This document shows, one piece after another, positions 2,448 through 28,259 of a stretch of 36,176 nt of DNA. Below the pieces are notes generated by a model. The model ran no database searches. It had not been told where the DNA came from and worked only from the letters and a program-made list of their open reading frames with translations. The translations under genes and the position numbers were made by a program. Source of the DNA: an uncultured Gammaproteobacteria bacterium (GTDB lineage Bacteria; Patescibacteriota; Patescibacteriia; Magasanikbacterales; GWA2-37-8); assembly GCA_964444635.1 (NCBI GenBank), contig CAYUIA010000002.1:1-36176 (forward strand), read 5' to 3'. The stretch's first letter is position 1, and each line of letters opens with the position of its first letter.

Positions 2448-4616
2448 TCATAAATCATCCAAATCTCGTAAAAAACTTCCCGGCCTTATTTTCGTCGGTT
2501 TGTCTATATAAGCGCTTTCCTCGGCTTCATAAACTACCCCGCTTATTGGATCGTTAAATTTGGTGGCGCTGTCTGAAATCAACGACCTATCATCGAGCAA
2601 TTCACTGTCGATTTCGCTCAAAAACATGCTTGGTCCACTCAAACTATCTCCCCATCCCCCACCAATCATTGGATAAGTTAAAAATAAATTCTTCTTGGCG
2701 CGAGTTATAGCTACATAAAATAAACGTCTTTCTTCTTCCAGTCCTTGCGTTTCAGAGAGTGATCTATCACTTGGAAACGCACCACTACTTAGGTTGATGA
2801 TAAAAACATTCTCCCATTCCAATCCTTTGGCTTGATGCACAGTAGACAAAACGATTTTGTCTTTGACCCCTCTGGCACTTTGCGCCACCTCCCCTTCGTA
2901 AGGGGAGGATGTCCCCTCCTTAACAAGGAGGGGTGGGGGGAGGTCTTTAAAATTTTCTTGCAAAGTCGCTTCCGCCAAAAATTCTTCTAGCTTATCATAT
3001 TTTTCTGCAAATGTCGCCAATTGTTTGATGTCGGCTTTTCTGTCTTTATAATCCAGATATTCATTTTCCAGATAATCTTTATAAGCCGAATCTAAAATTT
3101 TATTTATCATATTGGCTGGCGTTCTGTCGCTAGTTAACATTTCATCCCAAATTTTCAAAAAGTTTTCAAAACCCAATTGCGCTTTACCGCCCAAAATATT
3201 TTTTATTTCCGGCAATTCTTCAATATTTTGCAAACTGCGGACAAATTCCATGATTTTTTCCACAGCTGCCGGACCTATTCCTTCTTCGTGTAACAAAACC
3301 CTTGTCCAAGCCACCAAGTCATTTAAATTACTTACTATTCGTAAATAACTTAATACATCTTTGATATGCGCGCGTTCAAAAAATTTCATTCCCCCGCGAT
3401 AATCATACTGGATTCCGGCTTTGGTCAATTCCATTTCAAGCATCTGGCTGTGTGCGCTGGCGCGAAAAAGCACAGCGATTTCACTTGGCGCTACACCTTT
3501 TTCCAAAGATTCCACAATTTTTTCCAACACAAAACTCGCTTCCATGCTTTGGTCCATCTGCGGGCGTAATTGCGGTTTATCTCCTCCGTCTTTTATCGGT
3601 TTTAAACTTTTTTTGTATTGTTTGGTGTTATAAGAAATAATATCATTGGCGATTTCCAAAATTTCTTTGGTACTGCGATAATTGGTTTCCAATTTAAAAA
3701 TTTTTGCCTCCGGATAATCTCGTTCAAAATTTAAAATATTTTCTATATTGGCGGCACGAAAAGAGTAGATGCTTTGCGCATCATCACCAACAACCAAAAT
3801 ATTTTTATGCACACTGGCCAACTTTTTTATAATTTCCGCTTGAATTTTGTTGGTATCTTGATATTCGTCCACCATGATATATTGAAATTGCGTGGCAAAT
3901 TTATTTTTTATTTCTTCATTTTGCAAAAGCAGTAACCAATTGGTCAAAAGGTCATCAAAATCCATGCAATTGGCTTGTTTTTTGCGTTTTTCATACTCAC
4001 TCCATAAATTTTTTATCTGATCAGCTACAGCAAACCATTGCGGATATTTCAAATCCAAAACTTCTTCAATTGTTGTATCGGCATTTTTGGCAAAAGAAAT
4101 TATTCCTTGCAACACATTAGCCGAAGGATTTTTTTTGTCCGTTCCGGAATTAAAAATATCTTTGGCGCAAAGTTTTATCAAACTGCGACTATCCTCGCTA
4201 TCAAGCACGGTAAATTTTTCCGTATATCCTATAAAACTCGCATGGCGTTTCAAAATTTTATAAGCAATACTATGAAAAGTCCCCGCCCAAGGGAGGATAT
4301 TGGCGGTCTTCGGTCTTCGGTCTTCGGTCTTCGATTGTCCGTAGTCTGTAGTCTGATTGTCCGTAGTCAACTGTGGTCTGTAGACCGTAGACCGTAGACC
4401 ACTTACTCGCTCTATCATCTCGCCCGCTGCTTTGTTGGTAAAAGTCACAAGTAAAATATTTTCCGGTTTTATCCCTTGTTCCAATAGATATGCAACACGA
4501 TAAGTAACCGTTCTTGTCTTGCCCGAACCAGCTCCGGCCAATACTAAACAAGGACCTATCCCCATATAGATAACGGCCAATTGTTCTTGATTGAGCTCTT
4601 TGGAATAATCAATCAT
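2448..4616 (-). CDS. pcrA: UvrD/PcrA-family SF1 ATP-dependent DNA helicase (722 aa) carrying two in-frame repeat-element insertions
   Basis: Walker A AGAGSGKT, motif Ia TFTNKAAGEM, GTFHS, DEYQDTN, VGDDAQSIYSFRAA, TNYRS, STVHQAKGLEW, YVAITRAK. Confidence 0.95.
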   Translation of the reverse strand: MIDYSKELNQEQLAVIYMGIGPCLVLAGAGSGKTRTVTYRVAYLLEQGIKPENILLVTFTNKAAGEMIERVSGLRSTVYRPQLTTDNQTTDYGQSKTEDRRPKTANILPWAGTFHSIAYKILKRHASFIGYTEKFTVLDSEDSRSLIKLCAKDIFNSGTDKKNPSANVLQGIISFAKNADTTIEEVLDLKYPQWFAVADQIKNLWSEYEKRKKQANCMDFDDLLTNWLLLLQNEEIKNKFATQFQYIMVDEYQDTNKIQAEIIKKLASVHKNILVVGDDAQSIYSFRAANIENILNFERDYPEAKIFKLETNYRSTKEILEIANDIISYNTKQYKKSLKPIKDGGDKPQLRPQMDQSMEASFVLEKIVESLEKGVAPSEIAVLFRASAHSQMLEMELTKAGIQYDYRGGMKFFERAHIKDVLSYLRIVSNLNDLVAWTRVLLHEEGIGPAAVEKIMEFVRSLQNIEELPEIKNILGGKAQLGFENFLKIWDEMLTSDRTPANMINKILDSAYKDYLENEYLDYKDRKADIKQLATFAEKYDKLEEFLAEATLQENFKDLPPPLLVKEGTSSPYEGEVAQSARGVKDKIVLSTVHQAKGLEWENVFIINLSSGAFPSDRSLSETQGLEEERRLFYVAITRAKKNLFLTYPMIGGGWGDSLSGPSMFLSEIDSELLDDRSLISDSATKFNDPISGVVYEAEESAYIDKPTKIRPGSFLRDLDDL
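2865..2945 (-). repeat. 81-bp triple-hairpin repeat element inside the helicase CDS (27 codons, in frame)
   Basis: Its reverse complement aligns end to end with intergenic 11557-11636, with about 9 differences over 81 positions by hand alignment. Confidence 0.85.
4304..4402 (-). repeat. 99-bp heptad word-repeat palindrome inside the helicase CDS (33 codons, in frame)
   Basis: CGGTCTT x4, then ATTGTCCGTAGTC / TGTAGTC / TGATTGTCCGTAGTC, then GTAGACC x3 ending in CAC. Left-arm heptads are complementary to right-arm heptads in 6 of 7 positions. Confidence 0.8.
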
Positions 4617-5295: not shown

Positions 5296-6558
5296 ATGTT
5301 TTTCGAAACTCTCAAAAAAGACAACCAAACCAAAGCCCGCACTGGCATTATTCACACCGACCACGGGAATATTGAAACTCCCGCTTTTATGCCTGTCGGC
5401 ACCCAAGCTACCGTCAAAACCCTGGACCAACAGGACTTGCTTGATATTGACGCGCAAATAATTCTTGGTAATACCTATCATTTACATTTACGTCCAGGCG
5501 AAGATCTCATCGCGGGACAAGGCGGTTTGCATAAATTTATGAATTGGAATAAACCGATTTTGACCGACTCCGGCGGATTTCAAGTTTTTTCTTTGGGCTT
5601 ACAAAAAATAATGTCATCGCGAGCCACCAAAGGTGGCGTGGCGAACCCACTACAAGCAGATAACAATGGGATTGCTTCGACTTCGTCTCGCAATGACAAA
5701 ACCAAACAAGGTGGTTTGGTAAATATCGATGAAGAAGGTGTGACTTTCCAAAGTCACATTGATGGCAGTTCGCATCGTTTCACTCCCGAATCAGCAATTG
5801 AAATCCAGCATAAACTCGGAGCTGATATTATCATGGCGTTTGACGAATGTACACCGGACACCGCACCTCGCGAATACATAGAAGAAGCTATGCAGCGCAC
5901 CCATCGCTGGGCTGATCGTTGTATCAAAGAACATCAAAAAAATACCTCTTATCACGGCTACAACCAATTTTTATTTGGCATTATCCAAGGTGCCGGAGAC
6001 GAAGAGCTTCGCAAAAAATCCGCACAATATATTTCTTCCCTTCCTTTTGACGGCATTGCTATTGGCGGAGAAAGTATCGGCTATAATATGGACGCTACTA
6101 AAAATATTTTGGATTGGGTTACTCCGATTATTCCGGAAAACAAACCTCGCTACACCATGGGGCTTGGACTTTCACCTCTTGATCTACTGATTGCCGTGGA
6201 ACATGGCGCAGATATGTTTGATTGTGTCGCTCCAACTCGTCTCGCTCGTCACGGCATGCTTTTTTGTCATTGCGAGAGTAACGAAGCAATCCCACAAATT
6301 AACAAACATCGTTTGAATATAAAAAATTCAATTTTTATTAACGACCTCTCCCCGATTGATCCGAATTGTACTTGTCCGGTTTGTAAAAATTATACTCGCT
6401 CATATTTGCACCATCTTTTCTCCGCAGACGAAATGACGGGCATGCGCTTGGCAACTATTCACAATCTTTACTTCATGCTGAATTTAATGAAAGAAACGCG
6501 AAAAGCGATAAACGAAGACAGGTTTACAGAATTACTCAACAAGTGGAAAACGGCTTAA
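5296..6558 (+). CDS. tgt: Queuine tRNA-ribosyltransferase (420 aa) with in-frame repeat-element insertions
   Basis: TPAFMPVGT, LTDSGGFQVFSL, IMAFDEC, GIAIGG, Zn site CTCPVCKNYTRSYLHHL. Confidence 0.95.
   Translation: MFFETLKKDNQTKARTGIIHTDHGNIETPAFMPVGTQATVKTLDQQDLLDIDAQIILGNTYHLHLRPGEDLIAGQGGLHKFMNWNKPILTDSGGFQVFSLGLQKIMSSRATKGGVANPLQADNNGIASTSSRNDKTKQGGLVNIDEEGVTFQSHIDGSSHRFTPESAIEIQHKLGADIIMAFDECTPDTAPREYIEEAMQRTHRWADRCIKEHQKNTSYHGYNQFLFGIIQGAGDEELRKKSAQYISSLPFDGIAIGGESIGYNMDATKNILDWVTPIIPENKPRYTMGLGLSPLDLLIAVEHGADMFDCVAPTRLARHGMLFCHCESNEAIPQINKHRLNIKNSIFINDLSPIDPNCTCPVCKNYTRSYLHHLFSADEMTGMRLATIHNLYFMLNLMKETRKAINEDRFTELLNKWKTA
5613..5697. repeat. GTCATYGCGA...TCGCRATGAC palindromic (MITE-like) element inside the tgt CDS
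   Basis: GTCATCGCGAG...CTCGCAATGAC termini. Internal mini-hairpins CCACC-AAA-GGTGG and GAC-TTC-GTC. The reverse complement of the right arm (GTCATTGCGAGACGAAGTCGAAGCAATCCCA) matches the left arm of the 9639 copy and the half copy at 6266. Confidence 0.85.
6266..6295 (+). repeat. Half copy (one arm) of the same element inside the tgt CDS
   Basis: GTCATTGCGAGAGTAACGAAGCAATCCCAC compared with 9639-9675 GTCATTGCGATCCGCCATGGCGGAGAAGCAATCCCAC. Translated as CHCESNEAIP. Confidence 0.65.
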
Positions 6559-8912: not shown

Positions 8913-9012
8913 ATATTAAAAATTTAATTAATCCTACCTTATATCTTATGCTTGTTTTTGAAAACTGTCAAAACTTGCCTTTCTTTATTTTTTAAACTAA
9001 ACTGGATAGCAT

Positions 9013-9135
9013 CTCCCCTCTCCTTACAAAGCCTGGTCCCATACCAACCCGCAAGGGTCTGGTGTCGGGAGAGAGGGTTAGGGTGAGGTTAGGTTTGGCT
9101 TCCCTCTCCTTACGAAGGAGAGGGTTAGGGTGAGG
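9013..9135. repeat. Two tandem copies of the CCTCTCCTTAC..GGAGAGGGTTAGGGTGAGG palindromic element
   Basis: Copy A is 9013-9088 (long loop) and copy B is 9101-9135 (TCCCTCTCCTTACGAAGGAGAGGGTTAGGGTGAGG). Confidence 0.8.
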
Positions 9136-9154
9136 TCTTACTATATTATAAACT

Positions 9155-9622
9155 ATGAAAATAAACATCATCGTTGTCGGAAAATTCAAAGAAACTTATT
9201 GGTCGCAAGCTGAAAACGAATATCTCAAACGTTTATCCGCTTGGTTTAAGATAAATATTATTGAACTCAAAGAAGAAAGTTTTACTGAAAAAGACGACCG
9301 CGAAAAAATCAAAGCCAAAGAAGCACAAAATATCCTGGCTAAAATTCCGGAAAATTCTTTTATTATTGCATTGGACGAAAACGGCATGGAATTTGAAAGT
9401 GAAAAATTCGCAGACAAACTGCAATCTTGGTTAGAACTGGGCGATGAACTCACATTTATTCTCGGCGGACCACTCGGACTACATTCAAGCGTTTTACAAA
9501 AAGCAAATTTTAAACTCGCTTTAAGCAAAATGACTTTCCCACACCAAATGGCGCGCGTCGTTCTGCTGGAACAACTCTATCGCGCACAAATGATAAATCA
9601 TAATCGCAAGTATCATTATTAA
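9155..9622 (+). CDS. rlmH: 23S rRNA (pseudouridine1915-N3)-methyltransferase RlmH (SPOUT)
   Basis: 155 aa with IIVVGK..., LGGPLGL, and a C-terminal LSKMTFPHQMARVVLLEQLYRA. Confidence 0.9.
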   Translation: MKINIIVVGKFKETYWSQAENEYLKRLSAWFKINIIELKEESFTEKDDREKIKAKEAQNILAKIPENSFIIALDENGMEFESEKFADKLQSWLELGDELTFILGGPLGLHSSVLQKANFKLALSKMTFPHQMARVVLLEQLYRAQMINHNRKYHY

Positions 9623-9638
9623 AACATCCATGTTATGT

Positions 9639-9726
9639 GTCATTGCGATCCGCCATGGCGGAGAAGCAATCCCACTGCTTTCTGAAATTTGTGGGATCGC
9701 CGCGTTCCTTCAGGACTCGCGATGAC
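9639..9726. repeat. Intergenic full copy of the GTCATTGCGA...TCGCGATGAC element (88 bp)
   Basis: Left arm GTCATTGCGATCCGCCATGGCGGAGAAGCAATCCCAC. Right arm GTGGGATCGCCGCGTTCCTTCAGGACTCGCGATGAC. Confidence 0.85.
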
Positions 9727-9730
9727 AAAC

Positions 9731-9759
9731 AAAAAAACGACCTTTCGGCCGTTTTTTTA
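9731..9759. terminator. Bidirectional terminator
   Basis: AAAAAAACGACC-tttc-GGCCGTTTTTTT. Confidence 0.6.
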
Positions 9760-9762
9760 ATT

Positions 9763-10359
9763 TTATTTTCCCAATATTTTTTTATCATCTGTTCTTATGT
9801 CTTTTTTAGGCTTTCTTCCAAAATTTCTTTTGCTGTTTTTATATATTTTATAATTTTCTCTTTTGCTATCACCTATTTTTGCCTTTGTTTCAACTCTAAT
9901 TTCCGTTGGTGTTTTAAATTTTTCTTCTTTATCGCCTGTTAAACTAAATTTATCTTTATTATCATTAATTTTTACACCCATATCCGCAATTTTATCAAAA
10001 TATTTTTCATCTTCTTCATAATCTCCAAAAGTCACTTCTCTTTGTGGCGGCCTGGTATCTCCTTGCGCATTATACATTGCATAAGGATCTTTGGCCTTTT
10101 CTTCCTCTTCCGCAATCATTATGTCTTCAGGATTGCCCGTACCGCTATAGTGGCTTTCAATATCTTCAACAGCTTTATATCCTTCCTTAACCATAACTGG
10201 CTTATCAGTATGTTTATAAGGCTGTTGTTCGGCTTTTTCATCCGCAAAAGGATGTTGCTCTAAATTAACCCCGTCGCCCCCACCGGGGATTCTTTTTGTT
10301 TTTTCCCCTTCATCGGTTTTATCTCTTTTAAACCAATTCCAACCACCTTCTTTAAACAT
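9763..10359 (-). CDS. Hypothetical acidic/Lys-rich, probably disordered protein (198 aa)
   Basis: Intact ORF, biased in D/E/K, no TM segment. Confidence 0.6.
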   Translation of the reverse strand: MFKEGGWNWFKRDKTDEGEKTKRIPGGGDGVNLEQHPFADEKAEQQPYKHTDKPVMVKEGYKAVEDIESHYSGTGNPEDIMIAEEEEKAKDPYAMYNAQGDTRPPQREVTFGDYEEDEKYFDKIADMGVKINDNKDKFSLTGDKEEKFKTPTEIRVETKAKIGDSKRENYKIYKNSKRNFGRKPKKDIRTDDKKILGK

Positions 10360-11556: not shown

Positions 11557-11636
11557 GACCTCCCCTACCCCTCCTTGCTAAGGAGGGGACATCCTCCCCT
11601 TAGCAAGGGGAGGTGTCACGAAGTGACAGAGGGGTC
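11557..11636 (+). repeat. Intergenic copy of the 80-bp triple-hairpin element
   Basis: CCCCTCCTT-gct-AAGGAGGGG, CCTCCCCTT-agc-AAGGGGAGG, TGTCAC-gaa-GTGACA, closed by GACCTCCCC...GAGGGGTC. Confidence 0.85.
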
Positions 11637-12274: not shown

Positions 12275-12429
12275 TTGCGCAAAATTTCGCTTCGCTCATT
12301 TTGCGCAATGTGCGGCGCATAACTGCGCCAGCTGTGCTTCGCGAAGCTTCGCACAACTGTCGCATATCCAAAATGGCGATCTGATGACAAAGTCATCATC
12401 TCACCACTTCGGATTATGCGCCGCACATT
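12275..12429. repeat. Nested inverted-repeat structured element (MITE-like or ncRNA)
   Basis: Hairpin TTGCGCAAAAT-12 nt-ATTTTGCGCAA (12275-12308). A 16-bp inverted repeat AATGTGCGGCGCATAA (12307-12322) / TTATGCGCCGCACATT (12414-12429) encloses CAGCTGTGC...GCACAACTG and TGATGAC-AAA-GTCATCA hairpins. Confidence 0.65.
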
Positions 12430-27677: not shown

Positions 27678-28259
27678 TTATTTTCGCCCCAACATCTTCA
27701 ATGCCTCCTTCATTAGCTGTTCACTTGTTTTACCATTAGCTTGAAGTTTTTGCATTGTGTCTCTAGCTTGTATTCCGCTGTATCCCAAAGCCATCAAGCC
27801 TTCTACCACATCCCCTATTTCATTACTAAATCCTTGCCCCAAATTTGCACTTGTACTTGGTCCGACCTTGTTTTTGAGTTCTACCACCAGTCTTTCTGCG
27901 GTTTTTTTACCCATTCCGGAAACTTTGGTCAGATATGCGACGTCACTGCGAGCGATAGCTGAACTGATTTCTCCAACACTGCCCAAAGAAAGAATACGCA
28001 AAGCAGTTTTCGGACCAACCCCAGAAACTAATAAAAATTTTTCAAATAAGTTTTTTTCTTCTTTGTTTTTGAAACCGTACAATTCCATCGCATTTTCTCT
28101 GACCGCCAAATATGTCAAAATTTCGGTTTCCATACCTACTTTAAAAAACTCAGCACCATTAGTATTGACCAAAATTTCATAACCAACACCGCCGGTAGTC
28201 AAAACTATTATCTGCTCGCCATTGTTTTCTATAATTTTTCCTTTTATGAGAGAAATCAT
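27678..28259 (-). CDS. ruvA: Holliday junction branch migration protein RuvA
   Basis: MISLIKGKI...GGVGYEILV, helix-hairpin-helix LLVSGVGPKTALRIL and KVSGMGKKTAERLVVELK. Confidence 0.9.
   Translation of the reverse strand: MISLIKGKIIENNGEQIIVLTTGGVGYEILVNTNGAEFFKVGMETEILTYLAVRENAMELYGFKNKEEKNLFEKFLLVSGVGPKTALRILSLGSVGEISSAIARSDVAYLTKVSGMGKKTAERLVVELKNKVGPSTSANLGQGFSNEIGDVVEGLMALGYSGIQARDTMQKLQANGKTSEQLMKEALKMLGRK

Follow-up and report, generated by a model that had tools for sequence, protein, structure and literature searches.

A probable REP-type palindromic dimer in frame within the tgt gene of a Patescibacteria bacterium

How does a housekeeping gene come to carry a palindromic repeat within its reading frame, and what kind of repeat is it? 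The question is raised by tgt, the gene of queuine/preQ1 tRNA-guanine transglycosylase (Tgt), on a 36,176-nt stretch of DNA (contig CAYUIA010000002.1, assembly GCA_964444635.1), referred to here as the window, from an uncultured bacterium placed among the Patescibacteriota, Magasanikbacterales. An initial annotation had described a palindromic segment of roughly 85 bp (5613–5697) that interrupts tgt in frame and recurs elsewhere in the window, and had taken it for an element resembling a MITE (a miniature transposable element with inverted repeats) or a repetitive extragenic palindrome (REP), tolerated next to the active site. From the analysis reported below we conclude that positions 5612–5698, termed element A, are in all likelihood an in-frame REP-type dimer of a hairpin family that crosses phyla. 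How such modules move is much less certain than this identity.

A palindromic dimer in the tgt reading frame

The features of the locus are collected in Table 1. The inverted termini of element A, TGTCATCGCGAG (5612–5623) and CTCGCAATGACA (5687–5698), are 12 nt each, 92% complementary and separated by 63 nt. Both mini-hairpins pointed out earlier, CCACC-AAA-GGTGG and GAC-TTC-GTC, are found in the sequence and in the minimum-free-energy fold, and the 85-nt core of the element folds at −30 kcal/mol (z = −3.1; 0 of 200 shuffles equal). In the tgt frame the element reads ...MSSRATKGGVANPLQADNNGIASTSSRNDK..., stop-free within the ORF (open reading frame) of 420 aa, and the initial annotation was right on each of these points.

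Table 1. Features of tgt, of the repeat copies and of their surroundings in the window (coordinates on the 36,176-nt stretch).
Feature	Coordinates	Strand	Description and evidence
tgt (queuine/preQ1 tRNA-guanine transglycosylase)	5296..6558	+	420-aa ORF; host of two inserts
Element A, head-to-head dimer (tags outside) of the hairpin module, 87 bp, in frame	5612..5698	.	Residues 106-134 (MSSRATKGGVANPLQADNNGIASTSSRND); inverted repeat, fold, empty-site alignment, orthologous copies
Left arm of A	5612..5650	+	TGTC tag, ATCGC...GCGAA basal stem, mini-hairpin GCCACC-AAA-GGTGGC, CCCAC tail; covariance model 42.6 bits, E = 2.5e-7
Spacer of A, 15 nt, sole fast-changing part of the element	5651..5665	.	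Column variation among 4 orthologues
Right arm of A, read on minus	5666..5698	-	TGTCATTGCGAG-ACGAAGTC-GAAGCAATCCCAT, C-GAA-G triloop; covariance model 40.7 bits
Lone arm C, second in-frame tgt insert (CHCESNEAIPQ), in the loop after ARHGMLF	6265..6295	+	Covariance model 37 bits
Element B, intergenic head-to-head dimer	9638..9727	.	Arms 9638-9675 (+) 50.7 bits and 9691-9727 (-) 38.7 bits; between rlmH stop codon (9620-9622) and terminator
Terminator-like hairpin directly past element B	9730..9759	.	Terminator scan, called on minus: 13-pair stem, then T run

The arms of element A recur in the window far above expectation. GTCATYGCGAG with at most one mismatch occurs seven times against 0.49 expected, and the composite arm pattern GTCATYGCGA-N(4-30)-GCRAWCCC is found five times against 0.00 expected from shuffles. 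These composite matches start at 5613(+), 5697(-), 6266(+), 9639(+) and 9726(-), i.e., the pattern returns exactly the copies to which the right arm had been matched by eye, an intergenic one at 9639–9726 and a half copy at 6266–6295. The half copy, arm C in Table 1, lies inside tgt as well, which the initial annotation had left unmentioned. A covariance model run with filters off also picked out exactly five window arms at 37–51 bits, the next match scoring 13 bits. Matches to the 11-mer with one mismatch at 27942 and 33589 were rejected as chance, the remainder of the arm being missing there.

Could the segment be an ordinary lineage-specific loop extension that is palindromic by chance? Tgt loop 1 does range from 18 to 67 residues in the extracted segment even in the absence of recognizable repeats. 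The number of composite arms, the gap between 37–51 bits and a noise level of at most 13 bits, and the end-to-end alignment of the arms across phyla described below have nevertheless already refuted this reading, and we regard it as practically out of the question.

The host protein is an otherwise regular Tgt. Zymomonas mobilis Tgt chains in the PDB match it at E = 4e-101, with residues 11–101 of the query aligned to 22–112 and residues 142–415 to 115–375 of the Z. mobilis enzyme. In loop 1 this leaves 40 residues in the window protein versus 2 in Z. mobilis, and compared with its nearest relatives with an empty site it is longer by 29 residues (51 versus 22 in an equal segment). The length excess that had been suspected is hence real, and in-frame inserts of such repeats inflate protein lengths. 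PF01702 (Pfam) is present on all Tgt homologues, the window protein has no Pfam domain other than TGT, and its best matches carry the name Candidatus Magasanikbacteria, which points to this lineage as the most likely origin of the window. The identical protein is recorded on eight contigs, so the insert is not an assembly artefact.

Every residue that is invariant in 120 homologues is kept in the window protein, the catalytic and zinc-binding D91, D309, C358, C360, C363 and H389 among them. D91 aligns with Asp102 of Z. mobilis Tgt, and element A begins 15 residues past it; the location next to the active site claimed earlier thus holds along the sequence only. AlphaFold, given an alignment of homologues, modeled the protein with a mean predicted local distance difference test score (pLDDT) of 86.3 and a predicted template modeling score of 0.87. 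The pLDDT fell below 50 at residues 97–104 and 113–139, the remainder being confident, with block means of about 67–77 in loop 2. In Foldseek, the model matched solved Tgt structures with a target-normalized template modeling score of 0.93–0.94 and a root-mean-square deviation of about 2 Å. Given the low pLDDT of the insert, the kept fold and the kept catalytic residues, the part encoded by element A is best read as a predicted floppy excursion out of an intact enzyme. Presumably, tgt reads through the insert, as the intact frame suggests, and the tryptic peptide GGVANPLQADNNGIASTSSR would be the Tgt product expected from this read-through.

Alternatively, the segment might be an intervening sequence, i.e., a small intron or an excised peptide that mature Tgt lacks. 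It is a discrete, strongly folded unit bounded by inverted repeats, and genomes of the candidate phyla radiation (CPR) are known for intervening sequences in their rRNA genes. With 87 nt or 29 aa, however, it is far below the size of group I/II introns and inteins. Rfam searches in E-value mode (E up to 10) gave nothing credible for elements A and B, TGT is the only Pfam domain on the protein, and the lone arm at 6265–6295 has no partner that could set excision borders. Moreover, all copies borne by Tgt are stop-free and in frame, whereas the lengths of 71 distinct dimers of the family spread evenly modulo 3 (27/25/19), with up to four of six frames stop-free; selection for read-through predicts this pattern. 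We rejected an intron or intein on these grounds and consider an intervening sequence of either kind very improbable.

Insertion polymorphism and nucleotide-level constraint in Tgt loops

Orthologues that are 81–96% identical in DNA were compared at loop 1. Element A is present in the window and in loci L007, L005 and L159, and among the aligned proteins in P0002, P0006 and P0007. The site is empty in P0005, P0008, P0009, P0010 and P0011, which have LQKKMKGQGGL at this place, and loci L001 and L008 read ...AAGATGAAGGGGCAAGG. A third state is found in P0003 and P0004, where an unrelated palindrome, CCCCTCCTT-ACGA-AGGAGGGG, occupies the same site; the P0003 gene (L004) is 96% identical to that of the window outside the inserts. 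The filled allele has a net gain of 29 codons over the empty one. Because close relatives do without the insert, element A is an in-frame insertion polymorphism and not an ancestral loop.

The second insert of the window gene, arm C, behaves alike. Its CHCESNEAIPQ corresponds to an 11-residue gap in Z. mobilis Tgt, it is absent in L008 and L002, and the relatives P0008, P0009 and P0010 are also without it. More distant Tgt proteins (P0038, P0086, P0103) have a full dimer, CHCEEGTDEAIP...GIAALPSGARND, at the very codon of arm C.

We then read the loop segments of 120 Tgt homologues by eye. Tag-type inserts, such as LSSRGxKRRGDP...EIASS..PRND, VILSETKDP...PQND or CHPERSEGS, were found in about 13 homologues at loop 1 and in about 13 at loop 2, and inserts of the CCCCTCCTT type occupy the identical two loops in other Tgt homologues. 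Since unrelated repeat families share both loops, a tolerance filter is a simpler explanation of the pattern than an insertion target common to them. Read in reverse, an arm has three possible readings, ..RND, ..LAMT and ..SQ-stop, of which the first is used by the Tgt copies. A copy within a gene would survive only where three conditions come together: the added length keeps the frame, the reverse-read arm lies in the ..RND or ..LAMT frame and not in ..SQ-stop, and the loop is able to carry about 30 disordered residues. Such a filter would explain why different repeat families are found in the same two Tgt loops in different lineages. As a natural map, the inserts mark the places where some 30 additional residues are tolerated in Tgt. 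Separately, we observed a third insert hot spot in L160 and L162 at codons ~218–250, past the HQK/HKE motif, where L162 reads SIILNEVKNPLHSNREGSFAVAQDDK, resembling a dimer of a related GTCATTCTGA-type hairpin.

To what extent the repeat DNA itself is conserved was analyzed on two sets of orthologous copies, set 1 with the window, L007, L005 and L159, and set 2 with the loop-2 dimer of L160, L161 and L162. In set 1, third codon positions are invariant in 22 of the 29 codons of element A, compared with 35% in the rest of tgt (binomial P = 8e-6), and the flanks of the element reach only 6/20 and 6/19. Element A ranks first among 393 sliding windows in this measure. The lone arm is similarly invariant at third positions (10 of 11 codons, P = 2e-4), and the loop-2 dimer of set 2 has 30 of 31 third positions invariant against 50% (P = 1e-8; flanks 9/20 and 10/20). 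First and second positions, by comparison, are invariant to 81% in element A and to 85% in the rest of tgt. Constraint acts on the nucleotide sequence of the arms; unexpectedly, the repeat diverges less than do the synonymous positions of the gene that carries it.

Within the element, variation is unevenly distributed. In set 1, 5 of 59 arm columns vary, compared with 7 of 16 in the spacer and 6 of 12 in the stem of mini-hairpin 1; the right arm of A varies in 2 of 32 columns among orthologues. In set 2 the arms vary in 1 of 74 columns and the spacer in 5 of 20. Mini-hairpin 1 exists in the versions CCACC/GGTGG, CCGCC/GGCGG and TCACT/AGTGA, i.e., three of its six pairs have changed on both sides among the orthologues, with one unpaired cell. 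The fast spacer beside slow arms counts against simple recency or a recombination tract as the cause of the low divergence; it fits arms that are themselves constrained, or else a repair or conversion process specific to palindromes. The arms' conservation well beyond that of synonymous sites, the freely varying spacer and the compensatory changes in the stem are a measurable sign that the repeats are more than decaying junk.

These findings could also mean that the element has a DNA- or RNA-level function of its own in tgt, for which the host keeps it, with the peptide as a by-product. It might, for example, be a site for a nucleoid, topoisomerase or recombination protein, or an mRNA structure for stability or ribosome pausing. 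In favor of this are the conservation of the arms far beyond synonymous sites in two independent orthologue sets and its sharp stop at the element borders, the freedom of the spacer but not of the arms together with compensatory pairs in the mini-hairpin, and the fact that first and second positions do no better than third ones within the element (81% versus 76% invariant; 85% versus 35% in the rest of the gene). Close relatives (P0005, P0008, P0009, P0010), however, do well without the element, and one has an unrelated palindrome in its place. At Rfam gathering thresholds the whole window gave only a truncated tRNA at 1–55, and 16 loci with canonical copies gave no match. The elements themselves were unflagged in consensus scans for terminators and promoters, and these two roles were rejected. 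Hairpin-templated repair or conversion between copies could, moreover, slow divergence without any benefit for the host. We therefore hold a function kept by the host to be unlikely, if by no means far-fetched. Where the initial annotation spoke of an element tolerated in frame, the frame, the catalytic residues and the predicted fold are indeed kept, and "tolerated" may understate the case in view of the arms' conservation beyond synonymous sites.

Low divergence would also be expected if one master copy had repeatedly entered one codon by site-specific insertion (homing), in place of inheritance with loss or recombination. Element A is found in three separated branches of the tgt tree with identical, ancestral-looking empty sites between them, and different tag-type subfamilies start at the exact same loop-2 codon (after RHGxLF/Y) in distant Tgt. 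The element is also less diverged than the gene. Orthologous copies differ, however, by compensatory changes and a fast spacer, and so must have had time to diverge from their common origin. Unrelated repeat families in the same loops point to the tolerance filter, and the flanks in L007, being like those of L005, suggest recombination. Homing is an improbable explanation on balance.

The hairpin module across phyla and known repeat systems

Neither the tgt locus nor the copies matched by eye delimit the element. The arm pattern matches 30 viral contigs, and the canonical pattern matched at least 120 genome contigs. Among the matches listed are Alpha- and Gammaproteobacteria (many of them Bradyrhizobium), Bacteroidota, Chloroflexota, Cyanobacteria, Desulfobacterota, Planctomycetota, Zixibacteria, Latescibacterota, Firmicutes, Helicobacter and Patescibacteria. 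The five window arms, the left arm of A included, align end to end with 68 arms from organisms of other phyla. Composite pattern, contig matches and this family alignment together make the tgt segment a copy of a dispersed palindromic repeat, as had been proposed, and the core of the module is nearly identical across very distant phyla and viral contigs.

For the architecture we used the family alignment (the five window arms plus the 68 others) and 175–209 distinct arms parsed out of the fetched loci among the matches listed. On the tag strand, an arm opens with an unpaired Y-GTC tag, followed by the basal stem ATYGC/GCRAT of 5 bp, an internal loop of purines (GA/GAA), the distal stem-loop and a CC(C)A tail. 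All five window arms begin with TGTC; in 201 distinct flanked arms of genome contigs among the matches listed, GTC is preceded by C in 62%, by T in 34%, by A in 2% and by G in 1%. The basal stem is part of the best fold in 160 of 175 arms. Its pairs are almost fixed in the family alignment, with A-U at 5-35 in 72/73 and U-A at 6-34 in 73/73; 7-33, the sole variable basal pair, is U-A 70 times and C-G three times and never broken. The internal loop is GA/GAA in 107 arms.

The distal stem, by comparison, is variable in length and free in sequence and is always self-complementary, with a C-G pair usually closing a GNA or AAA loop. Over 182 hairpins, loops have 3 nt in 118, 4 nt in 44 and 5 nt in 11 cases, and the closing pair is C-G in 120. 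Among the 118 triloops, GNA on the tag strand accounts for 72 and its complement TNC for none. All six distal pairs have changed on both sides somewhere in the alignment, giving 57 such cells versus 19.9 in shuffles, a value that none of 500 shuffles attained. Among the tails, CCA (97), CTC (79) and CCC (67) are the most frequent, and the window arms end in CCCA(C/T). Conservation starts two bases upstream of GTC and ends about four bases past GCRAT; by these edges the module is a discrete unit.

Neighboring arms are mostly arranged head to head. Among the matches listed, pairs within 120 bp have their tags outside in 50 cases, inside in 4 and in tandem in 2, and each DNA strand of a dimer has one arm in tag orientation. 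The 71 distinct dimers measure 69–175 bp with a median of ~84 bp, and the window elements of 85 and 88 bp are therefore typical.

We compared the module with known systems, above all the CGTC-tagged REP superfamily (Di Nocera, De Gregorio & Rocco 2013, BMC Genomics 14:522; PMC3733652). There, a unit has a CGTC or TGTC tag (CCTC allowed), an uninterrupted stem of 8–9 bp that starts with A-T, a loop of 4–5 nt and a CCA tail, and "loops of different length" are allowed in some Bradyrhizobium units. Head-to-head dimers predominate, tail-to-tail ones are rare, head-to-tail ones negligible, and lone units occur. Genic dimers in frame encode 20–30 residues, often in repair and tRNA-modification genes, copies are found downstream of genes too, and no dedicated transposase gene is known. 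The superfamily includes RPE-4 and RPE-6 of Rickettsia as well as dRS3 of Neisseria.

The module agrees with this description in its YGTC tag, its A-T/T-A first pairs, its CCA-like tail and its tags-outside dimers, and also in occurring in frame inside genes, 3′ of genes and as lone units. It departs from it in two structural points, i.e., the stem is divided into a 5-bp basal part, the GA/GAA internal loop and a variable distal part, and the loop is mostly a 3-nt GNA. Furthermore, the peptides listed there for genic copies (VIPAKAGI, VIAGLDPAI, ...RGND) lack VIAS, SLR, CHCE and ...RND of the module; Patescibacteria are outside the five phyla listed in PMC3733652. Set apart in this way by the text description of the published families, the module is a candidate for a further CGTC family beyond those listed.

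Classic Rickettsia palindromic elements (RPEs) are about 150 bp long and form ten families (Ogata et al. 2000, Science 290:347, as cited in PMC10969869 and PMC3733652). They resemble the tgt insert in being palindromes in frame in intact housekeeping genes, adding a peptide thought to be compatible with the protein fold. Differences are the host phylum, the length of the classic RPEs, and the repeated use, observed here, of one enzyme's two loops by several families of repeats in different lineages. The peptides listed for the R. conorii CGTC-1 and CGTC-4 copies also differ from those encoded here; the likeness to RPEs is one of description. The tgt insert is an in-frame REP/RPE-type insertion, a kind of event already known, best from Rickettsia. 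In-frame palindromic repeats have mainly been treated as a Rickettsia curiosity, and the same phenomenon is now seen in a CPR bacterium. A literature search for a link between Patescibacteria and in-frame palindromic repeats found no paper, and full-text queries with the motif in either orientation gave nothing but unrelated primers.

With GTAG-tagged REPs, their REPIN doublets and the REP-associated tyrosine transposases (RAYTs), the module shares a tagged hairpin, inverted doublets that can be folded as one long hairpin, and lone units that may be doublet remnants. In contrast, its tag is YGTC and not GTAG, and in ~150 loci no arms were seen to flank a RAYT gene or that of another transposase. 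MITEs (Correia/NEMIS, RUP, ERIC, Coxiella QMITE) are likewise short, non-coding, dispersed, bounded by inverted ends and at times fused in frame to ORFs. They are, however, defective insertion sequences (IS) with terminal inverted repeats of 15–30 bp and target-site duplications, whereas each end of the present element is a complete hairpin module that is also found alone, no duplication is visible, and no parent IS in the fetched loci shares its ends. Of the double label MITE/REP-like used by the initial annotation, the REP part suits a head-to-head dimer of a tagged hairpin better than the MITE part does; neither a target-site duplication nor a related transposase was seen.

Regarding the mechanism, a head-to-head REP-type dimer may have landed in, or recombined into, a permissive surface loop of Tgt, where it would persist as translated sequence. 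The strand-asymmetric loops of the C-GNA-G type suggest that the module acts as a hairpin of single-stranded DNA (ssDNA). C-GNA-G hairpins, e.g., d(GCGAAGC), are classic, very stable DNA mini-hairpins. A trans-acting enzyme that reads tag, basal stem and internal loop might then move or copy the module in a manner like that of GTAG REPs and IS200/IS605 ends; the ssDNA mechanism proposed for GTAG REPs would be the best available analogy. The tgt case offers a tractable system for studying how CGTC-type REPs without a known transposase move.

Several observations weigh against the picture of a mobile dimer inserted into a translated loop. No target-site duplication is visible at the junctions of A, B and C. 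Empty and filled alleles differ in a few bases flanking the element too, which obscures the original junction. Element A is scattered on the tgt tree, and the flanks in L007 resemble those in L005; homologous recombination as the route of spread, or loss through excision, accounts for this as well as transposition does. From the patchy distribution and the L007 flanks, recombination between lineages probably also plays a part. The family is sparse in this lineage, with five arms in the 36-kb window and none outside tgt in ~78 kb of relatives, and recent activity there is hence not shown. All-versus-all clustering of the 3,473 ORFs of ~150 loci returned only common housekeeping families and one phage gene block, and no mobility-linked protein family recurs in these loci, a small sample of partial genomes. 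An arm pair 1.2 kb apart in locus L085 was rejected as IS ends, since REP dimers there flank an IS of the IS256/Mutator family with unrelated ends, which makes the REP a target and not an IS end. G-T pairs in the distal stems had no strand bias (18 on the tag strand versus 15 on the other). The family alignment had been pre-filtered for folding arms, which inflates the percentage paired.

A further-reaching idea is that the ATTGC-GA/GAA module is a distinct, not yet described family of ssDNA hairpins in many phyla and viral contigs, with arms under nucleotide-level purifying selection even in coding sequence. We put this forward only tentatively and rather doubt it. If true, a conserved protein partner or a host-level DNA or RNA role would be there to be found, and CPR housekeeping genes such as tgt and the UvrD-type helicase gene would be long-term carriers of the module and not accidental victims.

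Three further loci of the family were observed. In L085 (Patescibacteria contig JBBTVC010000013.1), the IS mentioned above spans 556–1840 between two REP dimers and encodes a Mutator/IS256 transposase (PF00872, E = 1e-7); its ends are GGTAATTAGTACCCTAATGGTTGAT, and its two borders read ...CTCGCAATG|G and C|CATTGCGAG, the REP tag region apparently being the IS target. In L079 (Patescibacteria contig JAQVNC010000011.1), a membrane protein of 524 aa has its C-terminal tail (...SLRGSLATKQSPVSRNKSEIASLPSVARNDRQF-stop) encoded by a same-family dimer at 3691–3800. The Chloroflexus contig of L045 has, at 1372–1956, a cluster of three direct arms with a period of ~51 bp and a further convergent pair ~330 bp downstream; clusters of this kind are rare in the arm family.

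Element B and other repeats of the window and its relatives

Downstream of rlmH, loci L004 and L005 have the same terminator hairpin directly after the rlmH stop codon, and ~105 bp including element B are extra in the window. Weak Rfam matches near 9725–9770 were rejected as belonging to the terminator. A 101-aa ORF with a GTG start (9637–9942) begins inside element B (MSLRSAMAEKQSH...), an example of the spurious small ORFs that intergenic copies could yield. The gene order past rlmH also differs, i.e., MBOAT and AlgX genes follow in L002 and L008 and are missing there in the window.

Two further in-frame polymorphic inserts are found in the UvrD/PcrA-type helicase ORF at 2448..4616 (minus), which encodes 722 aa in the window compared with 679 aa in L002 and L008. 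The first insert (2865–2948, minus; DLPPPLLVKEGTSSPYEGEVAQSARGV) consists of two hairpins, CCCCTCCTT-GTTA-AGGAGGGG and CCTCCCCTT-ACGA-AGGGGAGG, and belongs to a second repeat family, which is in frame at tgt loop 1 of L004 too. The second (4299–4403, minus; aa ~72–106) is built from heptamers in tandem, with three units of GGTCTAC and four of GAAGACC, in inverted symmetry; it is absent in L002 and L008 and partial in L005. The repeat load goes together, with the tgt element and both helicase inserts in the window and L005, and none in L002 and L008.

Intergenic copies of the CCCCTCCTT...AAGGAGGGG hairpin family lie at 11567–11614, with 23-nt arms that are 83% complementary and 2 nt apart, and at 9010–9135, a stretch that includes CCCTCTCCTTACGAAGGAGAGGG and repeated GGTTAGGGTGAGGT. 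Lastly, a perfect 16-nt inverted repeat unrelated to element A, AATGTGCGGCGCATAA / TTATGCGCCGCACATT, is located at 12307–12322 and 12414–12429 with 91 nt between its halves.

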